Source of the DNA: Candidatus Omnitrophota bacterium | GTDB lineage: Bacteria > Omnitrophota > Gorgyraeia > Zapsychrales > Zapsychraceae | NCBI GenBank assembly: GCA_020632515.1 | Contig: JACKFK010000006.1 | Location: 139,876 to 203,875, forward strand | Length of the DNA: 64,000 nucleotides | Direction of reading: 5' to 3' | Part shown: positions 1,316 through 22,585 of the stretch, piece after piece | How positions within the stretch are numbered: position 1 is the stretch's first letter | How the letters are laid out: each line of letters starts with the position of its first letter | Position numbers and translations under genes: made by a program | Notes under the pieces: model-generated | Databases searched by the model: none | What the model saw: only the letters and a program-made list of their open reading frames with translations | What the model was told of the DNA's origin: nothing

Positions 1316-3013
1316 ATGAATATTAAATCTAAATTTCCTTTAGGGCAGTTACTTGTTGAAAAAGGTGTTATCAGCCAGGAACAGCTTAATACGGCATTAC
1401 AAAAACAAAAAGAAACCGGTGAGCTCTTGGGGGCCACGTTAATGGCCTTGGGCTTTATTGATGAGGAAACGATTTTTCTTCCGGTTCTCGCCGGGCAAAT
1501 AGGTGTTGATTTCGTCAATATTAAAAATATTGATATTCCCCAGGATGTAATTAATAAAATACCTGTCAAATTTGCCAGCCATTATAAAGTCATCCCTATT
1601 GATTTTAAAGATAACGTAATTACCTTAGCCACAACGGAACCGTTGGATATTCAAATTATTGATGAAATCGGTTTAGTGGTTGATTATCGTATTAATACGG
1701 TTTTAGCCAGTGAGAAAGATATTTTGGAAGCGATTCGTAAATATTACGGTGTTGGGGCAGATACTATTGAAAAAATGATGGATAATGTTTTGCCGAGTTC
1801 TCAGTTTGAAGACGAATTTTCTGATTTAGAGGAATTAGATTCGGAAGCATCAATCAGTAAGTTTTTAAATCAGATTTTGTTGGAAGCATACCGGGATCGG
1901 GCTACGGATATTCATATTGAACCCTTTGAAGATGAGCTTCATATACGCTATCGCGTTGATGGTATTCTTAATGACGCTAAGGTTCCACCTAATATCAGAC
2001 ATTTCAAAGATTCAATTGTATCGCGCATCAAAATTCTTTCTAAATTAAATATAGCGGAGAAACGAAAACCCCAGGATGGTCGATTTAAAGTTCATGTCGG
2101 TGAAATTGATTTAGATTTACGGGTTTCATTTTTGCCGACGCCTTACGGGGAAAGTGTTGTTATGAGGCTTTTGAATTCAACCAGATTATTTACTTTAGAA
2201 GAATTAGGCCTTTCAGCGGAAGATAGGAAAACTCTTGAAGGATTGATTAAAAAACCGCATGGGATTATTTTTGTTACGGGGCCAACTGGATCAGGAAAAA
2301 CAACAACGCTTTATTCGTGTTTAGCGCGCGTGAATACGGAAGATAAAAAAATTATTACGATTGAAGATCCGATTGAATATCAGATGAAGGGGATCACGCA
2401 GATTCAAATCAACCCGCCGGTCGGATTAACATTTGCCCAGGGGCTGCGCTCTATGCTGCGCCATGATCCTGATATCATGATGGTAGGAGAGGTGCGGGAT
2501 AAAGAAACCGCAGATATTTCCATTCAAGTTGCTTTAACAGGCCACTTGGTTTTATCTACTTTGCATACAAACGATGCGCCGACGGGTGTAACAAGGCTTC
2601 TGGATATGGGAGTAGATCCGTTTTTAATTACTAGCACGGTTGAATGTTTTATTGCGCAACGGCTGGTACGGACATTATGCAAAAAATGTCGACAGCCTCT
2701 TCAGATTACTCCAGAACTTATGGAAGATTTTCAAGATATTGAGATCGACAAAGAGTTAAGCATTTATGAGAGTAAAGGCTGTGAGAGCTGTAAGTTTACC
2801 GGTTACAGCGGCCGTCAGCCTATTTACGAGATACTATTGATGACTGAAGAAATTCGTCAGTTGATTATGGAACGTGCCACAGCGAATCAGATTAAAGATA
2901 AAGCATTGCAAAATGGGATGAAAACATTGCGTCAGTCTGGTTGGGAAAAAGTTCGTGCAGGATATACGGATCCGCAGGAAGTGTTAAGGGTTACGCAAGA
3001 GGAAAGTGATTAG
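1316..3013 (+). CDS. gspE: Type II secretion / type IV pilus assembly ATPase (GspE/PilB family)
   Basis: N-terminal T2SSE_N-type helical repeats (LGQLLVEKGVISQEQL...). Walker A GPTGSGKTTT. Asp/His box region (MLRHDPDIMMVGEVRD, LTGHLVLSTLHTND). Tetracysteine CKKC...CESC motif. Confidence 0.93.
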   Translation: MNIKSKFPLGQLLVEKGVISQEQLNTALQKQKETGELLGATLMALGFIDEETIFLPVLAGQIGVDFVNIKNIDIPQDVINKIPVKFASHYKVIPIDFKDNVITLATTEPLDIQIIDEIGLVVDYRINTVLASEKDILEAIRKYYGVGADTIEKMMDNVLPSSQFEDEFSDLEELDSEASISKFLNQILLEAYRDRATDIHIEPFEDELHIRYRVDGILNDAKVPPNIRHFKDSIVSRIKILSKLNIAEKRKPQDGRFKVHVGEIDLDLRVSFLPTPYGESVVMRLLNSTRLFTLEELGLSAEDRKTLEGLIKKPHGIIFVTGPTGSGKTTTLYSCLARVNTEDKKIITIEDPIEYQMKGITQIQINPPVGLTFAQGLRSMLRHDPDIMMVGEVRDKETADISIQVALTGHLVLSTLHTNDAPTGVTRLLDMGVDPFLITSTVECFIAQRLVRTLCKKCRQPLQITPELMEDFQDIEIDKELSIYESKGCESCKFTGYSGRQPIYEILLMTEEIRQLIMERATANQIKDKALQNGMKTLRQSGWEKVRAGYTDPQEVLRVTQEESD

Positions 3014-3024
3014 GGATAGAAAAA

Positions 3025-4254
3025 ATGGCGCGATTTACTTATAAAGCGAAAGAAGGGCCTGGTAAGTTGATTTCGGGTGTTATTGAAGCAAATAACAATG
3101 ATCATGCAGTCAGTAAAATTATTAAATTAGGATTAACGCCTATTGATGTTCAGGTTGAGAATTTAAATGAAGCAGATACTGTTAAAAGTAAGAAAAATTT
3201 ATCTATTCCGATATTCCAGAAAGTTAAACTGAGCGATTTAGTTTTGTTCACGCGGCAGATGAGTGATTTAGTCGGCGCGGCAGTGCCGATTTTAAAGGCT
3301 TTGCAAATCGTAAATAATCAAACCAGCAATCCTCATTTAAATAGTGTTATCCAGTCGATGTATTTATTTGTCAAAGATGGAGGTTCTTTTTCCGACGCGC
3401 TGGCGCGTAATTCAACGATATTTTCACCGCTCTATATCAACATGGTTCGCACCGGCGAGGCTAGTGGTCAATTAGAATTAACCTTGAGTCGTTTAGCGGA
3501 ATATTTGGAGAAACAACAAGAAACGAATAGTAAGGTAAAGGCGAGTTTGGCGTATCCATTTGTTATTCTCGGTGTAGGGATCATAACAATGTTTGTATTG
3601 TTTACTTGGATTATTCCCCGTTTGTCGGAAATGTTTAATGATCTTGATCAGGAATTGCCGTTACCGACGATTATTTTGACAAATATCAGTGAAGTTTTTG
3701 CTCAATTTTGGTGGTTGATGTTAATTCTTATCATTGGAGGAGTTGTTTATTTTAAACAATATACCAGTTCTGAGAATGGACGGATTTGGTTTGATTCTTT
3801 AAAGTTAAGACTGCCGATTTTTGGAAGTTTTATTAAGTTGGTTGAAGTTGGAAGGTTCTCGAGAACGTTGGGTACTCTGGTGGAAAGTGGCGTTTCTATT
3901 ACTTCAGCGCTTACGTCGGTCTGGGCGACAATTAATAATGTGGTTTTACGGTCAGAAGTAAAATCTGTTTCAGAAGAAGTGGCTAACGGGTCTAGTATTA
4001 AAGCCGCGTTAAGCCGGTGTCATTTCTTTCCGGAGATGGCTGTCAATATGATTTCAGTTGGAGAGGAGACTGGAAATTTAGAACACGGTCTTTATAAAAT
4101 TGCGGATACATATGAACGGGAAGCGGATCGTACAATTAAAACATTTATTTCATTGTTAGGACCGTTGGTCTTGGTTTTTATCGTTGTCTTAGTCGGTTTT
4201 GTGGTGATCGCGATGCTGCTGCCGATATTGCAAATGAATTTAGTTATTGAATAA
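3025..4254 (+). CDS. gspF: Inner-membrane platform protein (GspF/PilC family)
   Basis: Typical N-terminus (F.YKAK...G.IEA......A...LGLTPIDV). Duplicated T2SSF-type domains with three TM segments. Position directly after gspE. Confidence 0.92.
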   Translation: MARFTYKAKEGPGKLISGVIEANNNDHAVSKIIKLGLTPIDVQVENLNEADTVKSKKNLSIPIFQKVKLSDLVLFTRQMSDLVGAAVPILKALQIVNNQTSNPHLNSVIQSMYLFVKDGGSFSDALARNSTIFSPLYINMVRTGEASGQLELTLSRLAEYLEKQQETNSKVKASLAYPFVILGVGIITMFVLFTWIIPRLSEMFNDLDQELPLPTIILTNISEVFAQFWWLMLILIIGGVVYFKQYTSSENGRIWFDSLKLRLPIFGSFIKLVEVGRFSRTLGTLVESGVSITSALTSVWATINNVVLRSEVKSVSEEVANGSSIKAALSRCHFFPEMAVNMISVGEETGNLEHGLYKIADTYEREADRTIKTFISLLGPLVLVFIVVLVGFVVIAMLLPILQMNLVIE

Positions 4255-4290
4255 TTGTAGTGCTTTTTTAAATTAGAGAAAGGATTGTTT

Positions 4291-4728
4291 ATGAGGTTAC
4301 GCAGATTAAAAAAGGTGCAAAATTCTTTTGGTTTTACACTCATTGAGATTATGCTTGTCGTGATTATTATTGGTGTTTTGGCGGCGATGGTTATTCCTAA
4401 TATTTCTGGACGGGGAAAACAGGCCCGAGAAGCAGCCGCGCGTGCGGATATTGACGCGAATATGTCGGCGGCTCTGGATTTATATGAGTTGGATAATGGT
4501 GTTTATCCATCAACTGAAGAGGGATTAAAGGCTTTGGTTGAAGATCCTGGTTCTGCCAATAATTGGAATGGCCCTTATCTTAAGAAGAAGCAAATTCCTA
4601 AAGATCCTTGGGGTCGGGAATATGTCTATGCTTCACCGGGAGTCCATAATTCTGATGAATACGATTTGTCATCCTTAGGCCCGGATGGCACACCGAGCGA
4701 CGATGATGTTGTTAATTGGGTTAAATGA
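4291..4728 (+). CDS. gspG: Major pseudopilin GspG
   Basis: Prepilin site G|FTLIE with E at +5. Close match to the PulG/GspG core (DLYELDNG.YPSTEEGL.ALV...PKDPWG.EY.Y.SPG...D..SLGPDG). I prefer ATG 4291 (SD GAAAGGA, 6-nt spacer) over the track start TTG 4285. Confidence 0.9.
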   Translation: MRLRRLKKVQNSFGFTLIEIMLVVIIIGVLAAMVIPNISGRGKQAREAAARADIDANMSAALDLYELDNGVYPSTEEGLKALVEDPGSANNWNGPYLKKKQIPKDPWGREYVYASPGVHNSDEYDLSSLGPDGTPSDDDVVNWVK

Positions 4729-4749
4729 CATTACGGCATTCTCTCATTC

Positions 4750-5232
4750 ATGAAAAAAATAAGGAATAGTTACGGATTTACTTTAGTTGAGTTGATGCTG
4801 GTTGTTTTGTTATTGACTGTAATTGCTGGGCTAACTTTGCCGAATTTCAGCCGTGGTTTTGATTCTATGAAGTTAAAACAAACGGCGAAAGATCTCACCT
4901 ATATGATGCGTTATGCGCAAAGCCGCGCGATCACCAAGAATAAACATGTCCGGTTGGTATTTGAAGAGAATTATCAGCGTTATCACTTAGAAGAAGAAAA
5001 CGGTAGTGATAATTTTGTGCAAGTGAACGGACGAGCTGGTCGGATTTTTCATATCCCTTCAGGAATACAAATTGAGAGTGATAATGATGAAATTCTTTTT
5101 TTTCCTGACGGGCAAATTGAGAAATTGTATGTTTACATTTGTCAGCGGGAAAAATGTTTTACGGTTTCCACAAAAGAACAGCGTGGTCATGCGTTGTTAT
5201 ACAACGAGAGGGTTGAGGAAGAAAGGTTATAG
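4750..5232 (+). CDS. gspH: Minor pseudopilin, GspH/FimT-like
   Basis: Prepilin site G|FTLVELMLV, size about 160 aa, TAKDL..MMRYAQSRAI motif typical of the GspH family, position after gspG. Confidence 0.75.
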   Translation: MKKIRNSYGFTLVELMLVVLLLTVIAGLTLPNFSRGFDSMKLKQTAKDLTYMMRYAQSRAITKNKHVRLVFEENYQRYHLEEENGSDNFVQVNGRAGRIFHIPSGIQIESDNDEILFFPDGQIEKLYVYICQREKCFTVSTKEQRGHALLYNERVEEERL

Positions 5233-8200
5233 ATCTATGTTGCCTGAAATGTTAATGCTACTCGTATTAGGCCCTAATTGAACATTTGGTTTTCCGTTGG
5301 CTTTAAAAGTGTTGCGTAAAACATCTACGTCTATTGAATTTGAAATGTACATAGCTCCGGTATTTCCTTCTAGATAATTGTCAGTGATATCAATAGCGCC
5401 GAGCATACCACGCTCAACTTTAACACCCCAACGGTTATTGAGCATACGATTGTTATGGACTTTAACTTGGGTTGAATCGCTTTGCATATAAACACCAATC
5501 TGTAGAGAACCAGTGAAAGTATTGTCATAAATATCCGCGCCTACTGTTGAACCTACCCGCACTCCACCGCCGGTGTTGCTGCCGCGCTGGCTGTTGTCAT
5601 GAATGTTACAGCCAAAAATGGTGACATCATCCCAGCCGACACTGGCCTGAATACCGTGATACCAGTTTGAATAGATTTCGCTATTTTTGATAACAACGCC
5701 TGAGCTGTGTTTTTCAACCGTATTCGAAGCGAGTTTAATACCGTGTCCGTTTCCGCCGCCGCCAGCTAAATTTGTTGTTGAGACTTTCACATTATCAATC
5801 GTGACATTGTGTGTTGGGTGTTGTAGGCTTCCTGTAATTCCGATTCCCCAATGGCCGTGGCCATGCGTTTCAGAGTTTTTAACGGTAATGAATTCTGTTT
5901 TTCCAGAACCGGAGAAACTGTCGTTTCCAATACGGAATCCAACAACCGCATTTTTGACGATGATACCGTCAACGATGATATGGCTCACATCATGAATATA
6001 AAGATTATTAACGCCAGTGCTGGTTTGAATTGTGACTTTCTTAGAGTTCACAGCTTTAATTGTGATCGGTTTAGTGCTGGTTCCACTGTTGGTGTGGCAT
6101 TCAACCGACTCATTATATAATCCATCTTCGATAAATAATGTTTCACCGGCTTTGACAGTATTACATCCTTTATTAATAGTTCTCCAAGGGCTTGTTTTAC
6201 TTCCGCTGTTACTATCATTTCCTATTAGCGAAACATAATAACTGGCTCCTGTTGAAGGTGGCGGAGGAGGCGGCGGTGGTGGAGGGGGCTCTGGTGATGG
6301 TAATTCAATATCAGTCTTGATTAAATAAGTTGAAAATTCAGCTGATGCGACAGGCACATCCACCGGGCCGTTATAATTTCCCGAAACTAAAGGTAACCCA
6401 AAGGCATCTTTGATATCATAAATTCCGAATGTTTGATTTTGTTCGACAACTTGTGATAAGTCGACGGCGACGGTTGTGTTGAGCTTCCAATTAAAGATAA
6501 GTAAGAAACTTTTCTTTGGATTGTAATCATTTGGAATGATACTGATCTTATTAGAAAGCGTTAAAGGGATTTCAGTGGAATTGTTATCAAACATTTTTCC
6601 AGCTAAAGAAGTTTCATTTTGCCATTGATTGATATTCAAAGACGTAAATGTTAGATTATCTGCTTTGAGAGATCCTTTAAATGTTCCAGAGAAAGTGTTG
6701 TCATCAATTACATCATCAGGATCTAAGTTTGAGCATCCTTCACAATTATTGTCAGTTGTTACAGCTGTAGAAATAGTGATATGATCTGCCGGCGGAAGAA
6801 GGAAGCTGTTTCCAGTATAAATATTTGGTGTAGGTTTAGAATTGTCAGCAATGTCATCGCCCCAGAATTTGGAAATTGTTAGTCCTCCTCGTCCGAGATA
6901 GTTGTTTTTAAATTCAGCTTGAAGCGGCATTAGCGCACCTAATATTGGTGAAGTGTTATAAAAGTAATTCTTATTTAAGGTGATGTGACTGGAAGAGTTT
7001 GTAAATTCTCCGATGATAAATGGACGGTTGGCAAAAATGTTTGATTCAAGGTATAGGCCGGTCACAGATGGAGTACAGTTTTGACATTCGCTGTAGGCGT
7101 GGAAATTGTAGGCTGCGTTAGCATCATTATCGATGAGAATATTATTTACAAAGTATTTCCATCCATTATTTTCATACGAATTACGGATTGTAATTCCATG
7201 CGCATTTGTTGTAGCCGTGGCACTTCCTTTTCCGGCTGAATGAATGATATTTCCGTAAAAGACATGATCCCGTCCGAAATCCCAGGCCTGAACACCTATC
7301 TTATTGAAGGTGTGGTGAATGTAGTTGTTAATAAGATGCAAACCTTCCGCTAGAACAACAACCCCGGCCCCACTGCTAATGCCGTCAGGGTCAGTGATCT
7401 CCATGCCCCAGATCCAGTTATATTTTCCTTTGATCGTGAAATTTCCTTCAATCGTAACTTGATTGTTATTGATCGCACGGAAAACAATAGGGTACTGTTT
7501 GCTTCCATTGGCTATTAATGTGTATGCGCCTTGATAGGTGCCATCCATCAGCCAGTATAAATCTCCGGCTGTGGCGTTGCTGATGGCCTGGTCGATATTC
7601 ATTGGATTTGCAGAGGTTCCAGCACCGGTACCGTTCGCGGAAACATAAAACTCTCTTAAAGGGATAAAAGTATTGATCCAAGGCAAGGGTTCATTATATT
7701 CAAAGGCTCCGATGTCATAATTAAAATCTAATGGGCGGTTTAGACCGTCAAAATCTTCGAATATATTTAAAATTTCTTTTCCGGAATTAACCGCAGGACT
7801 GGTTCGGCTTAATTTATAATCTTTGCTAGCCAGGCTGATAAAAAGCGGATCAAATTCATCTCCAATAAGATTATCCGTCAATATTGCTGTCGAGGAATTA
7901 TTCTTAAGGTTGGTGTTGTTTAAAGAGAGAAGGTTATTGGTTAAACTAACAGTTTTTGCCTGTGCGGATATTTCGATACCGGTATTAGTATGATAGGAGA
8001 TTAGATTGTTTGTTAAATCCGCTGTCTCGGCATTATTCGTCAAGAAAACGCCGTTTTGGTTATTTTGTGCAATTGTATTATTATGGATTGTTACGTTACT
8101 GGCTTGATCCATATAAATCCCGTTTTGACCAAAATGATGAATAAGTGAATTTGTGATAGCGATATTGTCGGCGGTTCCGGTGATAATGATTCCATGATTT

Positions 8201-11200
8201 GTTCCGTCTTTGAATTCACAGCGTTCAACTTTGATATGATTCGCGGTGGAATTGATTTCAAGGCCGTTAAGGATATTTTTTGCATCAAACGTCAGGTGAA
8301 TTAACTTAATAAATTGTTCACCCTGATTAAATTTTAATATCGAAGAGCCGGTAGTAGTTTTTAATACGACTATTTCATCAGGATAGCTTGTGATTATAAT
8401 TGGATCATCCCATGAAGTTCCGTTTGGAATGATAGTGTTTGCTGGAATTGTGTACATACCGTCGCGTAGATATAGAGTGTCTCCTGGAAGAAGCAGGCTT
8501 AAGGCTTTGGTGATTGTCTTTAATGGAAAGTTTTCAGTTCCAGGATTTGTGTCATTTCCTGTTGGCGAAAGATAATAGCTTTTATGATTTGTCTGCGTGT
8601 GATTCTCAACCGTGACATTGATAACGGATGATGTGGTTTGATTACCGGCAGCATCTTTGGCCACAGCTTTTAATGTATGAGTTCCGTTTGTATCCAACGT
8701 TGTGTTCCAATTGATAGTGAATGGTTCTTGTGTTTTGGCAATGCCTAAAGGTTTATTATCCAGCATGAATTGAACACTTGTTACACCGACATTATCGTTG
8801 GCTTGCGCGGTAATTGTAATCGTATTAAAAATAAGCGCGTTATTTAATGGTGCTGTTAATGAAATAGAAGGGGCGATATTGTCAACAGCTGGAGTTAATG
8901 AACAATCTATTTCACAACCGTCTCCGGAAATATCATTCGCATCATCACATTCTTCATTGAGTCCTGATTGCACAATGCCATCGCCGCAAGTTTCAACGAT
9001 ACAGTTGGCCGAGCATCCATCATTTGAGGTTTGATTACCATCATCGCACTGTTCGGGAGTTTCGGTTGTTCCGTTCCCGCATTGGGCAGCCGTAATTCCA
9101 GAGCAAGTGACGTTGCATTGGTTTGGTTGGCCATTTTGTTGACCGTCATCACAAATTTCGTTGCCATCAATGGATCCGTCTCCACAGAATAATTGACTGG
9201 AACAGTTGTTAAATCCTGAACACTGTTGATTACAACTTTTATTTCCAGGATATCCGGCTGTTGTTGTGCAGGATGTAAGGTTGCCATCACAAAGTTCACC
9301 AATGCCGGTTTGAATAATCTGATCTCCACAAATCTCATTTTTACATTGTGCGTTACAGCCATCATTCGATTTTATATTACCATCATCACATTGCTCGCCG
9401 GATTCGAGAATATTGTTGCCGCAGACTGCTGTAGTTTTAGCAGAGCAGGAGGCATTACATTTGTTAGGTTGGCCATTTAAAGAGCCATCATCGCATGTTT
9501 CAGTGCCATTGATGACGCCATCGCCGCAAAATTCGCTTTGACATTGCGCGTTACAACCGTCATTAGAGATAATGTTACCATCGTCGCATTCTTCGCCGGA
9601 TTCAAGAACGTTGTTGCCGCAGATACCTGTGGTCTGTCCGGAGCAGGTGCTGTTGCAATGATTTGGCTGTCCGTTTAACTGAGCTTCATCACAAATTTCC
9701 GATCCATTAACAATGCCGTCGCCGCAAGACTCACTGCTGATACAGGCTGTGAAACCAGTACATAAATTGTTGCATTCCTTTGTTCCTTTATAGCCTTTGT
9801 TCGTTGTGCAGCCTCTGCTGTTAGCATCGCATATTTCATGAACTCCTGAGCCATTATTCATTTGAACAATCCCATCGCCACAAATTGTAAGCTGACATGA
9901 GCTTGTACATTGTGAAGATCCTGTAGACCCGTCGTCGCATTCTTCGCCGTTTTCCTGGATGGAATTTCCGCAAACAGCAGTGGTGATGGCTGTACAACTG
10001 CTGTTACAATGATTGGCTTGCCCGTTAATTGTGCCTTCGTCACAGATTTCATGACCGTTTATAATGCCATCGCCGCAAAATTCTGAAGATACGCATGATG
10101 AAAAAGCTGTGCATTGATCGTTGCAGTATTTTGTTCCAGCATAACCGGTGCTAGTTAAACAGGATTCATTATTCGAATCGCAGATTTCAGTAACTTGATT
10201 TCCGTTTGGAGATTGTATAAGATGATCCCCGCATTGCGTGATTTTGCAGTCTATATTACATTGAGAAGATCCTGCAGAGCCGTCATCGCATTCCTCACCG
10301 TCTTCTATAATATCGTTACCACAAGTGCTGGGAACTTTACCATTACAGCTTATATTACACTGATTCGGTTGACCATTTAAAGAAGCGTCATCACAGGTTT
10401 CTTGGCCGTTAATGATGCCGTCGCCGCAGAAATTTGAACTCACACACATTGAAAATCCACTGCATTCTGTATTGCAGTCTTGAGAACCAACATACCCATC
10501 GGTAGTGATACATTGCTGCGAATTGCTATCGCAGGTTTCTGTTTTTTTCATGCCATTGAGAGATTGAATAATTTGATCGCCGCATTTGGTTAATTGACAT
10601 TGAGAGGTGCATTGATCAGATCCTTCACTTCCGTCATCACATGATTCTCCAGATTCTTGAACGCTATTGCCGCAAACAGGGGAAGTGATGGCTGTACATT
10701 GTTGATTACAATGGTTTGGTTGCCCGTTGAGGGTGCCATCATCACATTGCTCATGTCCATTGATAATTCCATCACCGCAAGATTCAATGGCTGTACATGT
10801 ATTGAAATTAGAGCATTGATTGTTACATTGTTGAGTACCTTTATATCCACTATCAGTCGTACAGGATTGACTGTTCGAATCACAGATTTCGTTAAAGTTA
10901 AATCCGTTTGGTTTTTGAATAGTTCCATCATTACAGTAGGTGAAGTTACATTGTGCGCTGCAACGCTGAGATCCATTGGGGCCATCGTCACAAATCTCAC
11001 TGCCTTCGATGATGTTGTTCCCACAAATTGCGGCGGTTAATCCGGAACAGGAGGTGTTGCATTTATTCGGCTGGCCGTTGGCAGTTCCGTTATCACAAAC
11101 CTCATTATTATTTTTTATACCATCGCCGCAAAATTCCAACTGACATGTATTGGTGCAGCCATCCCCGGAAACTGTATTACCATCATCACATTTCTCTCCG

Positions 11201-14200
11201 AGGGATGTCTGAAGAATACTGTCTCCACAGAATTCAATCTGACATTTGTTGGAACAGCCGTCACCGGAGAAAATATTATGATCGTCACATTGTTCGCCTA
11301 ATCCTTTTTGAATGATATTGTCTCCGCAAATTTCCAATTTACAGGAAGAAGAGCAGCCGTCTCCTGAGACTTTGTTGCCGTCATCGCAAAATTCTCCGAT
11401 AGCCGATTGACGGATGCCGTCGCCGCAAAATTCTAAAGTACAGGATGAGGAACAACCGTCTTTATCTGTTAAATTGCTGTCGTCGCATTCCTCACCAGAT
11501 TCTTTAAAACCGTTGCCGCAAACAGCGGGTGTGGTGCCGGAACATGTTGCATTACATTGATTCGGTTGACTGTTTAAATTTCCGTCATCACATTGCTCAT
11601 TTTGTTCAAGGATTTGGTTTCCGCAAATAGGAGCGGTAATTCCGCTGCAAGACGTGTTGCAAGCATTCGGTTGACCGTTTTGAACACCGTCGTCACAAAC
11701 TTCGTTATTGTTTTTGATGTTGTCCCCGCAAACTTCTTTTAAACATTGCGCGGTACAACCGTCGTTAGAAACAGTATTGCCATCGTCACATTGCTCGCCT
11801 AAAGTGCTTTGCGTGATGCCGTCTCCGCAGGACTCGCTGCGGCAGGTTTGGCTGCAGCCGTCACCGGATACTGTATTACCGTCATCACAGACTTCACCGA
11901 TTGTATTTTGAATGAGACCGTCTCCACAGAATTCTGTAATACACGATTTATTACAGCCGTCACCGGAAAGGTTGTTGCCGTCATCGCATTGCTCGCCTAA
12001 ACCAATTTGTGTGATTCCATCTCCACAGGTTTCAATTTGACAGGAGCTGGAGCAAGTATCTTCGGAGATTGTATTATGATCATCACAACTTTCCCCAGTT
12101 TCTTGAACACCGTTGCCGCAGATAGAAGGCGAGACGCCGTCGCAAGTTGTGCTGCAGGCATTGGGCGCGCCGTTGTTAATACCATCATCACACGTTTCTC
12201 CTAATTGAGATTGGATAATGCCGTCTCCACAAATTTCCTGAACACATTCATTGGTGCAACCATCGCCGGATATTTGATTACCGTCATCACATTCTTCATT
12301 AAGTCCAGGTTGAACGATCTGATCGCCACAGCTTTCCAAATGACATTGTGAAGAGCATCCATCTTCGGATTGGATGTTTCCATCGTCACAAACTTCATTG
12401 GCTTCTATAATACTATTGCCGCATGCTGAAGGAGTAACACCGTTGCAAGTTGCATTACAATGATTAGGAGTATTGTTTTGATTGCCATCATCACACGTTT
12501 CTTGGCCATTCAAAATACCGTCTCCACAAAACTCGACAGGTGAACATGACGTGAAGCTTAAGCAATCTCCTTGGCATACTTGAGTTCCTTGATAACCGTC
12601 GTTTGTAACACAGTTCTGCGTGTTGGAATCACAAATTTCTTGAACGGTATGTCCATTCGGTGTTTGCACAGTGCCGTCTCCGCAGGATGTTAAAAGACAG
12701 GAGGGTGTACAAAGAGAAGAGCCTTGCGTACCATCATCGCATTCTTCATTAGATTCTTTAACACCATTACCGCAGATAGGGTTCGTTATGCCGCTGCAGG
12801 AGTTGTTGCACGCATTCGGTGTTCCATTGTTTTCGCCATCATCACATGTTTCCGTACCGTTTTTAATGCCGTCGCCGCAAAATTCCGTGGAAGAACATCC
12901 CAAAAATCCAGAGCATGAAGTATTGCAGCTTTGAGAACCTGCATATCCTTCAGGTGTTGTACAGTTTTGTATATTTTTATCACAGACTTCGCTTAAATTT
13001 GGTTGAATGATACCGTCGCCACAAATTTCCTGTTTACAGCTGGCGTTACATCCATCCCCGCTGATCGTGTTATGATCGTCACAGTTTTCACCAAGCTTTG
13101 GTTGGATAATGCCATCGCCGCAAAATTCGATCTTACATTTCGAAGAGCATCCGTCTCCGGAAAAGAGGTTGTGGTCATCACATTCTTCACCCAGTCCTGG
13201 TTGAACAATGCTGTCTCCACAGATTTCAATTTGACACGATGCCGAACACCCATCGCCAGAGATGTTGTTCCCATCATCACATTTTTCACCAAGATTATTT
13301 TGACGAATGCCATCCCCACAGGATTCATTGTGGCATTGATTGTCACACCCATCACCATTAGCGGTGTTGCCGTCATCACATTCTTCTCCTAAACCGGATT
13401 GACGGATATTATCTCCGCAAAATTCCTTAATACAGTTTTGGGTGCAGCCGTCACCGGAAGAATGATTGCCATCATCGCATTCTTCAGAAGGTTCAATAAC
13501 GTTGTTACCGCAAACAGAGGGGCAGTCTTGTGAACATGTTAAGGAAGACTCTGCTGGTTCTGTACAAACACCGTCACCACAAAATAAATCAGAGCGGCAG
13601 TTTTCAAATGATGAGCATTGATCGTTACAATTTTGAATGCCCGGATAGCCGTTGGTTGTTGTACAATTTTTTTGCTCTGAATCACAGGTTTCATTTAATC
13701 CTGGTTGAATGATGCCGTCACCGCAAGATTCAATAATACATTGATTGGAACATCCATCTTCGGAGGATTGATTGCCGTCATCACATTGTTCACCTAGGCC
13801 TGATTGGATAATGCCGTCGCCACAAATTTCAATTTGGCAAGAAGCTGAACAACCGTCCTCGGAGTTTACGTTGTTGTCATCACATTCTTCCTGGGGTTCA
13901 AGAATTCCGTTTCCGCATTCAGCCGGACAATCAGTAGAACAATTAAGTGATGATTCAGCTGATGATGTACAGATGCCGTCTCCGCAGAATAAAGAAGTGG
14001 CACACTCGTTGAATGAAGCGCAGTTATCATTACAAGATTGTTCTCCTGGATATCCTTCTGCTGTTGTACAGTTTTGTGTGTTGGAATCGCAGGCTTCTCC
14101 AATACCTGTTTGCGTTATTTCATCTCCACAGAATTCGTTGATACAATTCGCTGAACAACCGTCGCCGGAATTAAGGTTGCCGTCATCACATTCTTCTTGC

Positions 14201-16407: not shown

Positions 16408-16617
16408 TCATCCTCTGCTTAAGTCCTAAATAAGGAAGCCTGTTTCTTGAACTACAAGAGACAGGCCTAAACCATTCAAAATCAAAATTACCATCTTGAT
16501 TTTGGCGGCTAGGCTATCCTTATTTAAGGACCCTTGGCTTTGCTCTTACAAGTAATTGCTTGTAAGACTCTTCAAAACTTAATTAATGTTTGAAGAGGTC
16601 CCTGGGTTACCCCAGGT
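16408..16617 (-). promoter_or_regulatory. Highly structured candidate 5' leader of giant gene 1 (six helices)
   Basis: Pairings read directly:
- 16423-16440 with 16512-16531 (18 bp, 2 bulges), enclosing hairpins 16441-16449/16455-16463 and 16477-16485/16496-16504.
- 16544-16552/16559-16567.
- 16568-16576/16589-16597.
- 16601-16606/16611-16616, whose loop reads GUAA on the minus strand.
Strand assignment is inferred. Confidence 0.4.
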
Positions 16618-16778
16618 TTGCCTTTTACATTTCAAGAATTTGCTGTTTGCTTATTCAAGTATATACGGTAATTGAATAAAAATAATCGAGTGAATTGGAG
16701 ATGCAGGAAAACGTTTTCTTTTGCTGTTTTTTAGAGTTTTTTAAATATGGGGTATTTACGTATTACTAAATACATATC

Positions 16779-16796
16779 AATGATCATATGATCATT
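16779..16796. promoter_or_regulatory. 18-bp perfect palindrome AATGATCATATGATCATT in the divergent intergenic region
   Basis: Sequence equals its own reverse complement. It lies between the giant gene 1 start (16407) and gspI (17115). Confidence 0.35.
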
Positions 16797-17114
16797 AATA
16801 ACAAATATTGTGAAGAAAAAGATTGTCAAAAAAATGAAAAAATATCGAAAATATTTATAACTATAAGAGTACTAATATGTTTTAAATTAGGGTGAAACTA
16901 GTCAATTTAAGTAAAGGTTGCATAAAAATTAGATAATACGCGATTTAAACAAGTATGGAAATTTGATGATGATTAATCGTGAAGTAAAAAGGAATGGGCT
17001 ATGTAGAAAGTTTATATCAGGGTATTTCTAAAATAAAGTTGACGAAGTAGTATAAAAAAGATTTTAGTTTTGTTATGATGAAATAATCTATAAATAAAAA
17101 GGATTTTTGATTAT

Positions 17115-17507
17115 ATGAAAAATGAGAGTGGTTCAGTTTTATTAGAAGCCCTGCTGGCAACTGTTATTTTATCTGTTAGTATTACAATTATTATTCAGTC
17201 ATTAACCTCGAGTTTACGGGCCGCGCAGTATAGTTCTCAATATACCGAAGGTTTAATTCTCATTGATGATCAGTTAACCGAATATTTTCAAGAGGGGGTA
17301 GTTGAGTCGGATTTGAATGAGAATGGAAATCTTGCCGCCCCTTATGAAAAATATCAATATAAAGCAAGCACAGAACCTGCAGAGGAATTCGGTGAAAATA
17401 TTAATATTCTTGACTACCAACTAAATTGGCAAAGCGGACGACGGAAGAATAATATTAAAGTGCAAACATTATTGTTTAAAAAAGATGATGAAACAGCAAT
17501 TCAATAA
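17115..17507 (+). CDS. gspI: Minor pseudopilin, GspI-like
   Basis: N-terminus MKNESG|SVLLEALLATVILSV has G at -1 and E at +5, with an atypical S at +1. Size 130 aa. Position before a GspJ-like gene. Confidence 0.6.
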   Translation: MKNESGSVLLEALLATVILSVSITIIIQSLTSSLRAAQYSSQYTEGLILIDDQLTEYFQEGVVESDLNENGNLAAPYEKYQYKASTEPAEEFGENINILDYQLNWQSGRRKNNIKVQTLLFKKDDETAIQ

Positions 17508-18234
17508 TATTTCAAGAGCAAGGCTTATAACGAATAATGGATTTACACTTATCGAGTTATTATTAGCTATAAGCATTTTTTCAATTATAGGGTTAACAGT
17601 TTATAGTGTTTTTTCAAGTGGTATTCGGTTAAGTGAATATTCCGAAGGGCAAGGAGATATTTATCGTCAAGCTAGATGGATTTTGGATTTAATGAGTGCT
17701 GATTTAGAAGCTGCTGTAAATTATGATTTTAGTAGTTTTTATGCTGAAAAAAGTGCTTTTTTAGGAAATAAAGAAGAAATTCAATTCTTGAAAGAAACTA
17801 CGGGAGGTTTAAAAGTTATTAAATATTTTTTGATTGTTCCGGAGAGTTCATCTATTCATAAGGTTATTATTGGAAAAAAATATAAAAAGAATGTTGATAT
17901 TAATTTAGTAAACTCTCAAGCAGAAAGTAGGTATTTTTTAGTTCGAGAAGAAAAATCTTTTTTAGATTTCTTAACTGATGTTAATAGTGATAAAAATAGT
18001 TTGGAAGTTATAGCAACGAATTTCGCGGCAGATGGTTTGCGTTTTAGTTATGGTTTCTTAGATCAGCAAGATTCGTCTGAATCTAGTTGGCGTGATCAAT
18101 GGGACAGGAAGTATGTGCCTATAAACGTTTACGTTGAGATGGATTTAATATCAGAATCAGAAGAAAAAATTATTCATTTTGAAAAGAAAGTCTTAATTCC
18201 AACCGGATTCTGGGGGGAAGAACAGCAGGCATAA
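17485..18234 (+). CDS. gspJ: Minor pseudopilin, GspJ/PulJ-like
   Basis: Prepilin site NNG|FTLIELLLAISIFSIIG, about 250 aa, overlaps the end of gspI. Confidence 0.65.
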   Translation: MMKQQFNNISRARLITNNGFTLIELLLAISIFSIIGLTVYSVFSSGIRLSEYSEGQGDIYRQARWILDLMSADLEAAVNYDFSSFYAEKSAFLGNKEEIQFLKETTGGLKVIKYFLIVPESSSIHKVIIGKKYKKNVDINLVNSQAESRYFLVREEKSFLDFLTDVNSDKNSLEVIATNFAADGLRFSYGFLDQQDSSESSWRDQWDRKYVPINVYVEMDLISESEEKIIHFEKKVLIPTGFWGEEQQA

Positions 18235-18311
18235 AGTTGTTTTTATCTTCATAGAAGATTTTACTTTTTGTTATAATGAGCAATATATAAAAAATAAACA
18301 CACATCTATTT

Positions 18312-19736
18312 ATGAAAAAAGATTTGTTAACCACCGTTGAAATTACGGATTCTCATGTAAAAATTTATCAAAGCCGAGGAGCTAAGACTGGCTCATCGGT
18401 TGGATATTGTGAAGTAAGAGCTTTAAGAAGTCAATCCGATGAAGAGATAAGTAATGTTTTAATTGAAAGCAGATTTCCTAAAAATATATCAAAAGATAAA
18501 TTGACAGTAGTTTTACCGAGAAAATCCGTTATTTTAAAACAGATTAAACTTCCTTCTCATGATTTTGAAGAAATAAAAAAAATGGTGGCATTACAGTTGG
18601 TGAGTTTAATTCCATACGCATTGGATGAAGTTGTTTATGATTTTCATGTTTTAGAAAAAGATTCTGGAGGGTATACAAAAGTTTTAGTTGTTGTGGTTAA
18701 TAAAGACGTTTGTCGGCGATATATTAATATCTTTCAAAGAGCGGGGGTGGTATTTGATAAGTTTGTTTTAAGTTCTTTAGGAATGTTGCAATGGTTACAA
18801 CATCAACAAGTGGATATAAAAATGCCTTCTGTTTTTGTTGATGTGGATTATTCACATTGTGAAATCGGATTTGTTTATCAAAAGACTTTGTTATTCTCGA
18901 GAAGTATTAATTATGGGGCGAAAGATTTTTCGAGTGATAATATGTTGGGTTTGATTGATCAGTTACAGCGTAGTTTGGCAGCTTATCATAAAGAAGGTAT
19001 GGGATCTGAACCGCAAAGAATTTTTCTGATTATTAATGTGATGGAAAAGGATGCTTTGAAGGAACGATTGGAAAGAGAATTTAAGAAGCCGGTTGAAATT
19101 TTATCTGGTTTTGAAAAATTTTCTTTTGCCCGAAATGTGAATATCAATCAAATAAGAAATCAAGGCGGTGTATCATTAGCTGTGGGTTTGGGTATGCTTT
19201 TGAAAGAACCGCAAAAGATGATGAGTTTATTTCCTGCCGAGATTCAGGAAGGAAAAAGAATAAAGGGGCGGCGGAGAAGCTGGGTTATATTTTTCTTATT
19301 ACTTTTAATCAATTTAGGTTTATTTAGCGTTTTACCGACTCTACATTGGCAGCAAAAGGAAAAATATTTAAAACAATTAGAAAACGAAATTCAATCAATT
19401 AAACCGCAGATTGAAGAAGAAAAAAAGAAAAAACAATTCGTTGAAATATTTTATCAAGAGCTAAAGCGGCGTATTATAATTGTGGATTTAATTCATGAAT
19501 TAAACAAATTAACGCCTAATGATATTTCTTTTAGATCTTTATTATTAGACGATAATGGATCGTTTACAATTCAAGGATATGCGCAAACTAGTACTGGAGT
19601 AAATGATTTTCAATCCAGGTTGGTTCGTTCAGCTATTTTTAATGAAGTCAATTTGCAATTTGCGACTAAGCGTAAGATTTTTAATATGGAAGTAACTGAT
19701 TTTAAAATTATATCGAAATTGAAAATTAAAGAATAA
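18312..19736 (+). CDS. PilM-like actin-fold domain fused through one TM helix to a PilN-like periplasmic domain (functional GspL analogue)
   Basis: N-terminal about 300 aa is cytoplasmic. TM helix WVIFFLLLLINLGLFSVLP. Then a coiled coil (QQKEKYLKQLENEIQSIKPQIEEEKKK) and a PilN-type C-terminal fold (ISFRSLLLDDNGSFTIQGYAQT...FQSRL). Gene order supports the call. Confidence 0.6.
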   Translation: MKKDLLTTVEITDSHVKIYQSRGAKTGSSVGYCEVRALRSQSDEEISNVLIESRFPKNISKDKLTVVLPRKSVILKQIKLPSHDFEEIKKMVALQLVSLIPYALDEVVYDFHVLEKDSGGYTKVLVVVVNKDVCRRYINIFQRAGVVFDKFVLSSLGMLQWLQHQQVDIKMPSVFVDVDYSHCEIGFVYQKTLLFSRSINYGAKDFSSDNMLGLIDQLQRSLAAYHKEGMGSEPQRIFLIINVMEKDALKERLEREFKKPVEILSGFEKFSFARNVNINQIRNQGGVSLAVGLGMLLKEPQKMMSLFPAEIQEGKRIKGRRRSWVIFFLLLLINLGLFSVLPTLHWQQKEKYLKQLENEIQSIKPQIEEEKKKKQFVEIFYQELKRRIIIVDLIHELNKLTPNDISFRSLLLDDNGSFTIQGYAQTSTGVNDFQSRLVRSAIFNEVNLQFATKRKIFNMEVTDFKIISKLKIKE

Positions 19737-19753
19737 GTTGAATAAGGAATAAA

Positions 19754-20284
19754 ATGCGAAGTTTTACAACCCGAGAACAAAATATATTCATTTTTTGTCT
19801 AATTTTAATCTTTGTGTATCTAGGATATCAAGGGATTTATAAGAATTTGCAGAATAAATCTCAAGTCTTAGATGATGAGATTAGTAGTATGGAGAGAAAA
19901 ATCCGTAAAGATAGGAAAACGCTCGCCGAGGCAAAGGCTTTTGAAGTTCCATATGAACAATTAGTAAATCAGTTTGAGCAAAAGGTGCCTAATGAGCAGG
20001 TTATGTCAAATTTGATTTCGTTAATTGAAGAAGCTGCTGGAGATTTGGATTTAAGAATTTCTGATCTAAAACCCCAAAGGGTTAAACGAAGTGATACTTA
20101 TAATCGATTTTCTGTGAGTTTAACGATTGATAGTAATTTCGCGGCTATTATGGAATTTCTTTATGTGCTGCAGCAAGATCCTCATAATTTTGATGTTGAT
20201 GAGTTCCGTTTTGACAAGGGAAGTCGTCAGGATACTGATGCGATTAAATCGCGGTTAGTTTTAAGTAAGATATTCATTCCGTAA
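19754..20284 (+). CDS. PilO/GspM-like bitopic assembly protein
   Basis: Single N-terminal TM helix, a coiled coil, and a C-terminal ...RFSVSLTIDSNFAAIMEFLYVLQQ... ferredoxin-like signature typical of PilO. Position after the PilMN fusion. Confidence 0.55.
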   Translation: MRSFTTREQNIFIFCLILIFVYLGYQGIYKNLQNKSQVLDDEISSMERKIRKDRKTLAEAKAFEVPYEQLVNQFEQKVPNEQVMSNLISLIEEAAGDLDLRISDLKPQRVKRSDTYNRFSVSLTIDSNFAAIMEFLYVLQQDPHNFDVDEFRFDKGSRQDTDAIKSRLVLSKIFIP

Positions 20285-20466
20285 AAGTTTTTTAAGTTTT
20301 AAATATTGACTTCTTTCCACCGGAAATGGCATAAATTTCCTTAAATCTGATTGACAGACTAAAACGGATATATAACAATACCTTTATATATAATATTATT
20401 TTAATGTATAAATTATTCTGTAAATTTACTATTAATAAAAATTTTTAGGACGATTGAAAGTGTGGA

Positions 20467-21039
20467 ATGAAACAAAAGAAAAAAGTAGGGGCGAAGTCTA
20501 ATTTATTATTTTTTCTAAACCGTTTTTTCATTTTGGTCGTTATATGTTTAGTAGGTTGGATAGGATATAAATTAAAAAAAATACAAGATGGTAATACACC
20601 CGCGAACTTTCAAGGGAATATTTTTAAAACCGAAGGAACTTTTAAAGGTGAATATAATTTGAAGTTAGAAGGTGTTTTAGATAAACCTTTTAATTATTAT
20701 CAAGGTGAATTGGATAAGCGTAATTTTTTTGAAGCCCCCTGGGAAAAACCACAGATTGAAAAACGTGAAGAGCAAGTCAAGGAGCCGCCAAAACCAAAAA
20801 TTGATTTAAAAACTTTAATTAATTTAGTCGGGATTGTGCTGGATGATGATCCCAAAGCAGTTATTGAAGATTTAAAAACGCAGGAAACTGTTTTTTTGTC
20901 AATTGGTCAGGAAATTAATGAAGCTAAATTAATTGAGATTCATGAGGAAAAGATTATTTTTTTGTATCATGAAGAAAAGCAGGAAATATTTCTAGATAAT
21001 AAAAAAAGCCTTGAAGGGAACGAAGGCGTTGAGATTTAA
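20467..21039 (+). CDS. PilP / GspC(HR-domain)-like secretin-coupling protein
   Basis: N-terminal TM anchor, a Pro/Lys-rich linker, and a small C-terminal beta domain (LVGIVLDDDPKAVIEDLKTQETVFLSIGQEI.EAKLIEIHEEKIIF). Position immediately before the secretin. No PDZ domain. Confidence 0.45.
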   Translation: MKQKKKVGAKSNLLFFLNRFFILVVICLVGWIGYKLKKIQDGNTPANFQGNIFKTEGTFKGEYNLKLEGVLDKPFNYYQGELDKRNFFEAPWEKPQIEKREEQVKEPPKPKIDLKTLINLVGIVLDDDPKAVIEDLKTQETVFLSIGQEINEAKLIEIHEEKIIFLYHEEKQEIFLDNKKSLEGNEGVEI

Positions 21040-22585
21040 TTATATATATATCGTCGGTGTATTATTTTTATTAACAGGGAGTTTATTGGTTCCTGAAGGG
21101 GTTGCCCAGAATTCATCAAGCTCGCCGGAAGATACATACAATTATCCTGAATTTGAAACCCCAGTTCTTACTCCAACCCATCGTGTGCAAAAAGCCCGCA
21201 ATAAAAATCAAACGGTCATTGATGTCCTTGATTTAAAAAATATGGATGTGCTGGACGTTATGAAATTAATTTCACAAAAAAGTGGGATTAATATTGTTCC
21301 TGCGCAGAATGTCAGAGGAAAAGTTACTATTTATTTAAAGGATATTGAAGTTTATGAAGCTTTGTCATTAATTGTTGATGCGTATGGGTGGGCATATGTT
21401 GAAGATCGAGATGTTATTAAGATTATGACCGCACAAGATTATGAGAATAAATATGGGCATAAATTCGGCAAGAAAATTCATACAAGGATTAAACAAATAA
21501 TGTTTGCGAACGCGAATGATTTGGTAGCTATTTTAAATCAAGTTAAAAGCGCGTTAGGTAAAGTAATTTCAGATGATAAAACAGGGACATTGATTCTGAT
21601 TGATGAATATCCAAGGTTGGAAGAGATGGAATTAATTATTACAAAAATAGATGTTCCTTATCGAACAGAGGTTTTTGAGCTGACGTATGCCAGTGTTGAG
21701 GATATTTCGGGTAAAATTACGGAAGTTCTAACGCCAGGTTTAGGAAATTTGAAATTTGATGAACGTTCCAATAAAATTATTGTTTCAGATACTCCTCTGA
21801 AAATTAATGAAATACGGCATATTATAGAGGCCTTTGATCAAAAAGACCGTGAAGTTAATATTGAAGCGAAGATTATTCAAATCGCGTTAAACAATGAACA
21901 TAAATTGGGTGTAGATTGGGAAGCGATTGTTTCTGATTATCATGCGCTTAATCTCAAGAGTGATTTAGATGTCTTGTCGGCTTCTGAGAAGAGTGGGCGT
22001 CTAAGTATCGGGACCTTGGATAATGATGATTATACGTTTTTAATTGAAGCTTTGGATACAGTTGGTTCAACAGATATATTATCGAGCCCAAGGATTACTG
22101 CTTTAAACAATAAAGAAGCCAAGATTCTTGTTGGTTCAACAGAGCCTTACGTAACGTCCACGACAACAACACCGTCTTCCGGGCCAACAACAACCGCTGA
22201 AAGTGTCAATTTTATTGAAGTAGGTGTTAAACTATTTGTTACTCCGACGATTCATAAAGATGGTTTTATTACTATGAAAATAAAACCGGAGGTGAGTTCC
22301 GTTGTCGATAATGTTACAACAAGTAATAATAATACAATTCCGGTTGTTGAAACGTCTGAAGCGGAAACCACAGTTATGGTGCGCGATGGTGTGACTATTG
22401 TTATCGGGGGGCTTATTAAAGAAGAAAGTTTGAGAACGACAAAAACGATTCCTGTTTTAGGTAAACTGCCGGTGTTAGGTATGGTTTTCAAAAGTGAAGA
22501 TGAACGGGTCGGTAAGACGGAATTGGTTATATTTTTGACACCAATCATTGTTACTGGCGATGTTGATGAAGACATTTTTATGTAA
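21011..22585 (+). CDS. gspD: Outer-membrane secretin (GspD/PilQ family)
   Basis: Signal peptide, N-domains, and a canonical secretin C-domain (ILSSPRITALNNKEAKILVGS...IPVLGKLPVLGMVFKS......TELVIFLTPIIV). TTG start overlaps the upstream gene. Confidence 0.9.
   Translation: MKGTKALRFNYIYIVGVLFLLTGSLLVPEGVAQNSSSSPEDTYNYPEFETPVLTPTHRVQKARNKNQTVIDVLDLKNMDVLDVMKLISQKSGINIVPAQNVRGKVTIYLKDIEVYEALSLIVDAYGWAYVEDRDVIKIMTAQDYENKYGHKFGKKIHTRIKQIMFANANDLVAILNQVKSALGKVISDDKTGTLILIDEYPRLEEMELIITKIDVPYRTEVFELTYASVEDISGKITEVLTPGLGNLKFDERSNKIIVSDTPLKINEIRHIIEAFDQKDREVNIEAKIIQIALNNEHKLGVDWEAIVSDYHALNLKSDLDVLSASEKSGRLSIGTLDNDDYTFLIEALDTVGSTDILSSPRITALNNKEAKILVGSTEPYVTSTTTTPSSGPTTTAESVNFIEVGVKLFVTPTIHKDGFITMKIKPEVSSVVDNVTTSNNNTIPVVETSEAETTVMVRDGVTIVIGGLIKEESLRTTKTIPVLGKLPVLGMVFKSEDERVGKTELVIFLTPIIVTGDVDEDIFM

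Follow-up and report, generated by a model that had tools for sequence, protein, structure and literature searches.

An Omnitrophota type II secretion operon split by an antisense gene for a giant secreted-type protein, probably through a lineage-specific insertion

We analyzed a stretch of 64,000 nt from a Candidatus Omnitrophota bacterium (contig JACKFK010000006.1 of assembly GCA_020632515.1; hereafter the window, to which all coordinates refer), in which the genes of a type II secretion system (T2SS) are interrupted by an oppositely oriented gene encoding a protein of 3,726 aa, here called giant1. The explanation that we favor, with modest confidence, is that a conserved T2SS operon has been split by a lineage-specific insertion and that giant1 is an orphan secreted protein and a plausible client of this T2SS. 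A reading made earlier from the sequence alone (the sequence-only reading) had proposed a dedicated unit in which machine and cargo have co-evolved. This proposal did not survive the comparison with relatives, because the T2SS genes are contiguous in all 16 related loci and giant1 has no orthologue; as far as can be judged from sequence comparison, the physical embedding is a lineage-specific accident and not a conserved, co-evolved machine-cargo architecture.

The gene order is gspE-gspF-gspG-gspH on the plus strand, giant1 on the minus strand (5227-16407), and then gspI, gspJ, a PilM::PilN fusion gene, a PilO/GspM-like gene, a GspC-like gene and the secretin gene, again on the plus strand. 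This order, obtained from the map of open reading frames (ORFs) and consistent with the family profiles, matches exactly that of the sequence-only reading, including the position of the giant gene precisely at the gspH/gspI junction. Window positions 625-8132 and 9592-20406 are collinear, with 99.3-100% identity, with five independent assemblies of the same organism, namely an NCBI metagenome-assembled genome (MAG; GCA_020430025.1) and four Logan runs, and both junctions are spanned; both junctions are therefore real, and an assembly artefact is ruled out. The assignment to the phylum Omnitrophota is borne out by GspF, which is 100% identical to a protein (P0001) of an NCBI 'Candidatus Omnitrophica' MAG; the next-nearest GspF relatives, with 57-63% identity, likewise belong to Omnitrophota. 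Exact look-ups were successful for GspF and GspJ and gave no match for the PilM::PilN protein.

The evidence that carries our explanation comes from related loci, which were gathered by a scan of species-representative genomes, by exact look-ups of the closest GspF homologues and by a GspI-seeded scan of metagenomes; the orthologous loci are L012-L019 and L024-L035 (e.g., GCA_015232535.1 and GCA_029261065.1). In each of the 16 distinct related loci showing both genes, gspH and gspI are adjacent, with a gap of -29 to +173 nt, which argues against the giant gene being part of a conserved locus. The layout in close relatives is gspE-F-G-H-I-J-K-PilMN-PilO-(AAA_22 GspA-like)-C-like-secretin, followed by SpoU and VTT; SpoU and VTT are found downstream of the secretin gene in the window too, and genes for monogalactosyldiacylglycerol synthase, PriA, Fmt and glyceraldehyde-3-phosphate dehydrogenase (GAPDH) are found upstream in several relatives. 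Because the flanks are common (SpoU-VTT downstream, GAPDH upstream), the loci are regarded as orthologous, and the whole is a single vertically inherited chromosomal locus composed of a variable slot, gspE to gspD, SpoU and VTT. Each of the ten T2SS proteins of the window has a one-to-one orthologue, and the identities are typical of the respective components in both halves of the split cluster: 66-71% for E, 57-62% for F, 63-70% for G and 40-48% for H on one side, and 36-58% for I, 35-45% for J, 39-46% for L, 41-51% for M, 34-39% for C and 63-70% for D on the other.

The locus tolerates insertions, since unrelated genes have entered it or its borders in relatives, including those for an AbiEii toxin-antitoxin, a KilA-N protein, a sensor kinase and a helix-turn-helix (HTH)/nucleotidyltransferase pair. 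In L032 (JGI Ga0209417_1000033, 1-7750), where gspF-G-H-I-J-K-L-M-C-D are present with no gspE upstream of gspF, the HTH/nucleotidyltransferase pair fills the slot after GAPDH. Another variation is seen in L014, where an AsmA/DUF748 protein absent from the window is encoded after the secretin gene (13649-14470 of that locus); it recalls GspN, an AsmA-like protein recently tied to T2SS lipoprotein transport (PMC12802150).

The component identities proposed from the sequence alone were confirmed with Pfam and NCBIfam profiles. The ATPase gene gspE (1316-3013, +) encodes a protein matching Pfam T2SSE (447 bits) and MshEN (65 bits), with a Walker A motif GPTGSGKT at aa 322; its NCBIfam score is 599.6 bits for GspE (cut-off 630) vs. 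586.9 for PilB. The inner-membrane platform protein GspF (3025-4254, +) matches Pfam T2SSF in two stretches (216 bits) and TIGR02120 (384 bits, cut-off 424). For both proteins, the GspE and GspF subfamilies are the best-scoring ones and the scores fall just below the equivalog cut-offs. The major pseudopilin GspG (4285-4728, +) has T2SSG (116.6 bits) and N_methyl matches, a leader G/FTLIE, and a TIGR01710 score of 143.4 bits, above the cut-off of 88.85. The minor pseudopilin GspH (4750-5232, +) matches Pfam GspH (23.8 bits, cut-off 21) and N_methyl, and aligns over its full length with eight orthologues. The minor pseudopilins GspI (17115-17507, +; 130 aa, no Pfam match) and GspJ (17485-18234, +; 249 aa, Pfam N_methyl, TIGR01711 33 bits) score under their own cut-offs and were assigned by orthology and leaders; the alignment of GspI with its counterparts in eight relatives covers the whole length, and all have in common a G-S-x-L-L-E leader, GS(L/V)LLEALL.

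In the assembly platform, the equivalent of GspL is a PilM::PilN fusion (18312-19736, +), in which PilM_2 (52.7 bits) and PilN (39.3 bits) matches lie in one polypeptide, and all relatives have this fusion too. It is followed by the PilO/GspM-like gene (19754-20284, +; PilO 32.8 bits, T2SSM 28.4 bits), a gene for a GspC-like or PilP-like bitopic protein (20467-21039, +; T2SSC 16.7 and TIGR01713 27 bits, both below cut-off) and the secretin gene gspD (21011-22585, +; Secretin 161 bits, Secretin_N in two stretches, GspD N0 31.6 bits), whose product thus has N0 and N1 domains and matches TIGR02517 GspD best among NCBIfam profiles, with 253 bits (cut-off 351) vs. 244 for PilQ. In evolutionary terms, PilM and PilN together are the counterpart of GspL, and PilO is that of GspM. 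With this correspondence, and with T2SSK in relatives, the sequence-only description of a hybrid of T2SS and type IV filament was right about the components and wrong about the hybrid, which is a naming artefact; the machine is a Gsp-type T2SS. In addition, aa 8-53 of GspE (window 1337-1474) form an MshEN-type motif for binding cyclic di-GMP (c-di-GMP; NF053729, 65.6 bits, cut-off 38). Because MshEN is found in this GspE and in all GspE orthologues listed with Pfam annotation, the profile matches suggest that the T2SS is under c-di-GMP control.

Two components of the relatives are missing here. The slots of gspK (18234-18312) and of the gspA-like gene (20284-20467) are empty in the window cluster when compared with L012-L018; tblastn over the 64-kb window gave neither a GspK match, with queries from three relatives (best E 0.21-0.46), nor a trace of a gspA-like gene. 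T2SSK_1st is present in most relatives. In L019 (GCA_029261065.1), gspK is absent, the gspA-like gene is kept and there is no giant gene, and the loss of GspK is therefore not coupled to the gain of a giant gene. The ORFs scanned in the window include no Peptidase_A24 match, and the prepilin peptidase gene may lie elsewhere in the genome; they include no retraction ATPase either, nor does the window show any further system for export across the outer membrane.

The giant1 protein, with a mass of 0.41 MDa, begins with a signal peptide (aa 1-27, MFKSYLKSVLIITVFATIGLHIKTASG/QD), which is its only hydrophobic segment, in agreement with the Sec-type signal noticed in the sequence-only reading. A Cys-rich stalk follows (aa 105-2500, nt 8908-16095), composed of about 70 DUF4215/TIGR02232 units (Pfam DUF4215, 597 bits in 32 stretches; TIGR02232, 1027 bits in 37 stretches). 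Dissection of the repeats gave units of 30-52 aa with four or six Cys each, and the stalk holds 289 of the approximately 298 Cys of giant1; the protein has approximately 145 potential disulfides. A PDB sequence search of the stalk gave no match, and an AlphaFold2 (AF2) model of a 180-aa segment built with an alignment of paralogues had a mean predicted local distance difference test (pLDDT) value of 48.7, too low to define the geometry of the stalk.

Beyond the stalk are a Big_7 Ig domain found by Pfam (aa 2513-2581, nt 8665-8871), beta-helix module A (aa 2606-2910, nt 7678-8592), module B plus a further region (aa 2913-3357, nt 6337-7671), a poly-Pro linker (aa 3374-3384) and module C (aa 3387-3726, nt 5230-6249). 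Further matches of giant1 are to NosD and DUF1565 of Pfam and to choice_anch_Q of NCBIfam, and choice-of-anchor-Q domains are a mark of extracellular proteins; the three modules open with a DUF1565-type cap, (F/Y)Y(L/V)S, at aa 2611, 2920 and 3390. The AF2 model of module C (pLDDT 78.3, predicted template modelling score 0.81) is a right-handed parallel beta-helix of the Pel9A type, and this was the outcome of the structure prediction that the sequence-only reading had suggested for segments of the giant protein. Foldseek matched it to Pel9A (1ru4; E 6.7e-9, TM 0.63) and to a rhamnogalacturonan lyase (5olr; TM 0.60-0.63); folds of GH136, GH120 and PL6 match nearly as well as those of polysaccharide lyase family 9 (PL9), and the PelN-like NCBIfam score of giant1 is 73 bits vs. 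an equivalog cut-off of 740. The three modules are probably PL9-like right-handed beta-helices serving as polysaccharide lyases or binders. In Pfam and NCBIfam scans, giant1 has no anchor and no autotransporter, type I secretion, type IX secretion, PEP-CTERM or LPXTG signal, in line with what had been stated from the sequence alone.

The homologue search with the C-terminal 1,227 aa was swamped by Big_7 matches and was repeated without this domain, when only weak module-level matches with at most 30% coverage were obtained. With queries of the C-terminal 1,117-1,227 aa, no orthologue of giant1 was found among 5.8 billion proteins beyond its own partial copy, and no database protein joins approximately 70 Cys-rich units with three such beta-helix modules.

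Concerning the history of giant1, its GC content is 0.41-0.44 vs. 0.32 and its codon score is atypical. The surplus GC comes from the first two codon positions (codons for Cys, Gly and Asp), and its third-position GC skew, -0.43 to -0.65 on the coding strand, corresponds to the plus-strand bias of its neighbors; two other minus-strand genes show the same match to the local strand bias. Because of this third-position skew, we explain its codon usage by strand bias and not by recent transfer, and recent horizontal transfer was rejected on account of both the skew and the positions of the GC surplus. Because the skew equals the local strand bias, giant1 is judged, on compositional grounds, to be a long resident in its present orientation. 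The repeats of giant1 are also old, their DNA copies matching at 75-77%. Mobile-element origin was considered and rejected, as no transposase or integrase match was obtained in any ORF scanned and the leader described below is not repeated within the window. As a separate compositional observation, the third-position GC is 0.35-0.375 in gspE-H vs. 0.21-0.29 in gspI-D.

At its 3' end, giant1 converges with gspH with no spacer: the two genes overlap stop to stop by 6 nt (TTATAG), the TAG stop of gspH being the last sense (Leu) codon of giant1 on the other strand, and vice versa. Scans for terminators at both junctions gave matches no more frequent than in shuffled sequences, none of them convincing. 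At its 5' end, a divergent intergenic region of 707 bp (16408-17114) separates giant1 from gspI. Directly upstream of the giant1 start codon, on the minus strand, this region contains a hairpin-rich leader of approximately 240 nt (16408-16650) with five or six near-perfect hairpins (-93.6 kcal/mol, z = -7.4 vs. shuffles), which has no second copy in the window; scans for Rfam families and tRNAs gave nothing, either in this leader or anywhere else in the 64 kb. The leader could be a stabilizing or regulatory 5' untranslated region. Adjoining it is a 15-mer, TATATACTTGAATAA (16651-16665, -), which recurs as an exact match at 28361-28375 (+). These are the only two copies in 64 kb even when two mismatches are allowed, and each precedes one of the window's two giant genes, giant1 and giant2, by 150-260 nt and has the orientation of that gene; at least two matches were obtained in 7 of 100 shuffles. 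This 15-mer may be a shared promoter or operator of the two genes. An 18-bp perfect palindrome, AATGATCATATGATCATT (16779-16796), in the middle of the giant1/gspI region may likewise be an operator, and a half-site-like copy, ATGATCATTA, is present in the intergenic region (25782-25937) between the gene for an extracytoplasmic function (ECF) sigma factor and VTT. Matches to consensus promoters at both junctions, the giant1/gspI region included, were no more frequent than in shuffles, and an ECF-type promoter motif had no match in the upstream regions searched.

The second giant gene, giant2 (28528-37995, +), lies approximately 6 kb past the secretin gene, as the sequence-only reading had indicated, and encodes 3,155 aa with a signal peptide, fn3, multiple beta-helix modules and four choice-of-anchor-Q domains. 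Its hydrophobic segment is at the N-terminus only, and the identity between its beta-helix modules and the giant1 ones is 28-32%; by these features it is a second candidate secreted polysaccharide-active protein. Large secreted or beta-helix proteins are also encoded beside the T2SS in several relatives. In L013, which is among the nearest relatives, a co-oriented beta-helix gene of at least 2,260 aa, weakly similar to giant2, lies just upstream of gspE and ends 161 nt away; it appears in the record (2-6782, ENA ERZ26222911) as four consecutive co-oriented ORFs of 103, 312, 1,256 and 600 aa without signal peptides, with NosD/beta-helix matches on the two large ORFs and no Pfam match on the two small ones, and these look like one frameshifted gene. 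In L012, the neighbor of the T2SS is a gene for a beta-helix protein of 389 aa that carries a signal peptide; adhesin-like proteins of 962 and 1,008 aa adjoin the T2SS at the P0008 locus, and sedolisin proteases with signal peptides are its neighbors in L001 and L005.

According to the favored explanation, the ancestral order would have been gspE-F-G-H-I-J-K-L(PilM::PilN)-M(PilO)-A-C-D, followed by SpoU and VTT. A block of 11.9 kb, comprising the 11.2-kb opposite gene and the 707-bp regulatory region, would have been inserted in this lineage a long time ago, right at the junction of gspH and gspI, which until then had been coupled, and gspK and the gspA-like ATPase gene would have been lost in the same lineage. 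The operon would now consist of two transcription units, E-H and I-D, with its ten remaining genes intact. The giant1 protein would be exported by Sec, folded oxidatively in the periplasm, carried across the outer membrane, most plausibly via this T2SS, and would act outside the cell on a surface or on prey or host polysaccharide. The T2SS appears to be the most plausible outer-membrane route because giant1 has a Sec signal, a massive disulfide content and no alternative export signal, and its sequence features make giant1 a plausible candidate substrate of the T2SS.

Several observations weigh against this explanation, in particular against its export part. The proposed link between giant1 and the T2SS is accompanied by neither a shared promoter motif nor conserved synteny, and the 15-mer shared by the two giant genes is not found upstream of gspE or gspI. 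The spacer-free convergence with gspH has no convincing terminator, and transcriptional interference, not co-expression, is therefore predicted there. A large secreted neighbor is seen in 4-5 of approximately 12 loci with visible flanks, as a raw count; its position and the type of cargo differ among relatives, and unrelated genes fill the same slot in others. To our knowledge, a substrate of 0.41 MDa would be far larger than any characterized T2SS cargo. GspK, which canonical T2SSs need, is missing from this machine, and its E and D components score nearly as well as PilB and PilQ of type IV pili.

The alternative that survives best, a real possibility although a somewhat doubtful one, is that giant1 and the T2SS are functionally unrelated: the gene landed or grew at a permissive site of a housekeeping operon, its product takes another route or stays in the periplasm or outer membrane, and the T2SS secretes other proteins. 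The H/I position, unoccupied by a giant gene in 16 of 16 related loci, the lack of an orthologue, and the opposite orientation with stop-to-stop overlap all fit such an unrelated neighbor, as do giant2, which has similar modules and yet lies 6 kb away and outside the cluster, and the acceptance of unrelated insertions at the locus and its borders in relatives, with L032 even lacking gspE at the usual place. Less easily accommodated are the combination of a Sec signal, approximately 145 potential disulfides and no anchor or alternative secretion signal, the fact that the window shows no other outer-membrane export system, and the recurrence of large secreted proteins beside the T2SS in relatives.

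A bolder version of the client idea, which we regard as unlikely, holds that giant1 is a genuine client of a GspK-less T2SS, secreted whole or carried on the pseudopilus tip, and acts as a long 'fishing-rod' bringing three polysaccharide-lyase heads to the surface of prey or host, with the expression of machine and cargo coupled. If this were true, giant1, with its 0.41 MDa and approximately 145 disulfides, would exceed every known T2SS cargo in size by a wide margin, the stop-to-stop overlap with gspH and the divergent control region would couple the expression of machine and cargo, and the structured 240-nt leader would be an extra regulatory layer.

Since the E and D scores are almost equal to those of PilB and PilQ, MshEN is present and GspK is missing, a pilus or filament function keeps some probability, which we consider quite low. 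The cluster would then build a type IV-like surface filament with giant1 as a tip or adhesin fiber, an analogue of PilY1, perhaps in the role of the lost GspK. PilY1 is encoded among minor pilin genes, and giant1 lies within the minor-pseudopilin series of a cluster lacking GspK; the c-di-GMP domain of GspE is typical of pilus ATPases, GspH and GspI match ComGD and ComGE, and PilM::PilN weakly matches the Akkermansia Amuc_1101 pilus family. Against these points, the score of the major subunit exceeds the curated cut-off of the GspG equivalog, most relatives carry T2SSK, no retraction ATPase is present in the window, and giant1 is not co-oriented and has neither a pilin leader nor the vWA or PilY1 (Neisseria_PilC) domain of a PilY1-type tip adhesin. 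The replacement of GspK by giant1, in particular, was weakened as a candidate by L019, which is without GspK and yet has no giant gene. Least probable of all, and in our view scarcely credible, is a conserved co-evolved module in which the T2SS is dedicated to giant1 and the embedding is adaptive for coordinated expression, because, in spite of the physical embedding, the shared divergent regulatory region, the long residence of giant1 and the published giant-gene/T2SS-like neighborhoods in Omnitrophota, every relative examined has the T2SS in its conserved housekeeping context without a giant gene, giant1 has no orthologue, the published loci represent another protein class and another secretion-gene set, and the convergent overlap speaks against simple co-transcription.

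Some further features of the window were recorded. Upstream of a small ORF of 86 aa, itself located ahead of gspE, are two 79-nt direct repeats (488-670), 96% identical and spaced at 104 nt, which hold an internal sub-repeat of approximately 52 nt, TTTACGGGGT(G/A)AGT. Three CheY-like response-regulator genes are situated between the secretin and SpoU genes (22633-24294), and the ECF sigma factor gene (25185-25781), on the minus strand, between SpoU and VTT; these additions are absent from most relatives, and L032 also has response regulators around SpoU. Among the few minus-strand genes of the window is one at 56091-56930 encoding a protein with LysM and Amidase_2 (N-acetylmuramoyl-L-alanine amidase).

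The case has a corrective value for the interpretation of genome neighborhoods: in Omnitrophota, a giant gene can come to lie next to T2SS genes when a lineage-specific insertion enters a conserved housekeeping operon, and adjacency alone is no basis for calling a dedicated machine-cargo module. It also indicates that a tightly coupled pseudopilin operon can apparently tolerate an interruption by 11.9 kb of coding DNA in antisense orientation. If the T2SS does export giant1, the known size range of T2SS substrates would be extended several-fold, and the locus would offer a small, tractable model of how very large surface-active proteins are put to use by ultra-small Omnitrophota that may be predators or epibionts.

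Linkage of substrate genes to T2SS genes is classical, as for Klebsiella pulA next to pulC-O and for E. coli sslE(yghJ)-pppA-yghG-gspC-M, where sslE heads the gsp-beta operon. The present locus resembles these Gsp/Pul/Xcp systems in having D, E, F, G, H, I, J, L-, M- and C-like components in one cluster and in encoding a Sec-dependent, folded and putatively polysaccharide-active candidate substrate. It differs from them in the placing of the candidate gene, which interrupts the pseudopilin genes, is antisense to them and shares 6 nt with gspH, stop to stop, in the size of the product (3,726 aa vs. about 1,100-1,500 aa for PulA and SslE), in the lack of GspK, of a GspA-like gene and, among the ORFs scanned, of a prepilin peptidase, in a GspL recognized solely as PilM plus PilN, and in a GspE with the MshEN c-di-GMP motif.

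The giants published for Omnitrophota have more than 30,000 and up to 85,804 aa, with numerous transmembrane segments and, in most cases, a SecA DEAD-like domain; a system comprising over ten genes, among them gspD/E/F, rcpC (Tad-type) and one for a Rotamase_2 peptidyl-prolyl isomerase, lies ahead of them, and pilZ and sugar transporters/importers come after them (West-Roberts et al. 2023, bioRxiv 10.1101/2023.11.21.568195), and a giant of 147,155 aa has been described in a 2026 preprint (Nielsen 2026, bioRxiv 10.64898/2026.06.07.730766). The window shares with these loci the phylum, large beta-helix or carbohydrate-related proteins near gspD/E/F homologues, and a function proposed to lie in binding to prey or host or in attacking their polysaccharides. 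However, giant1 is approximately 10 times smaller, with one signal-type hydrophobic segment and no SecA domain, and the secretion genes around it form a classical Gsp cluster that includes the G/H/I/J pseudopilins, unlike the rcpC-type loci; gspD, E and F are present, and no scanned ORF of the window matched RcpC, Rotamase_2 or PilZ. The sequence-only reading had referred to such giant-gene reports as possibly describing a locus of this kind, and this identification is not sustained, the defining features being absent and the protein class and machine being different.

The closest counterparts of the machine are the T2SS loci of the relatives, which share with it the one-to-one orthologues of ten genes, the PilM::PilN fusion, SpoU-VTT and the MshEN-type GspE, and which differ in being contiguous, in mostly having gspK and the gspA-like AAA_22 gene, and in having no gene between gspH and gspI. 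For giant1 itself, the counterparts are found at the level of its parts: module C is like the PL9 lyase Pel9A in its predicted fold, with a PelN equivalog score far below the cut-off, and the stalk is like the DUF4215/TIGR02232 'Myxococcus cysteine-rich repeat' proteins, with which it shares tandem, acidic, Cys-rich units and a strong profile match.

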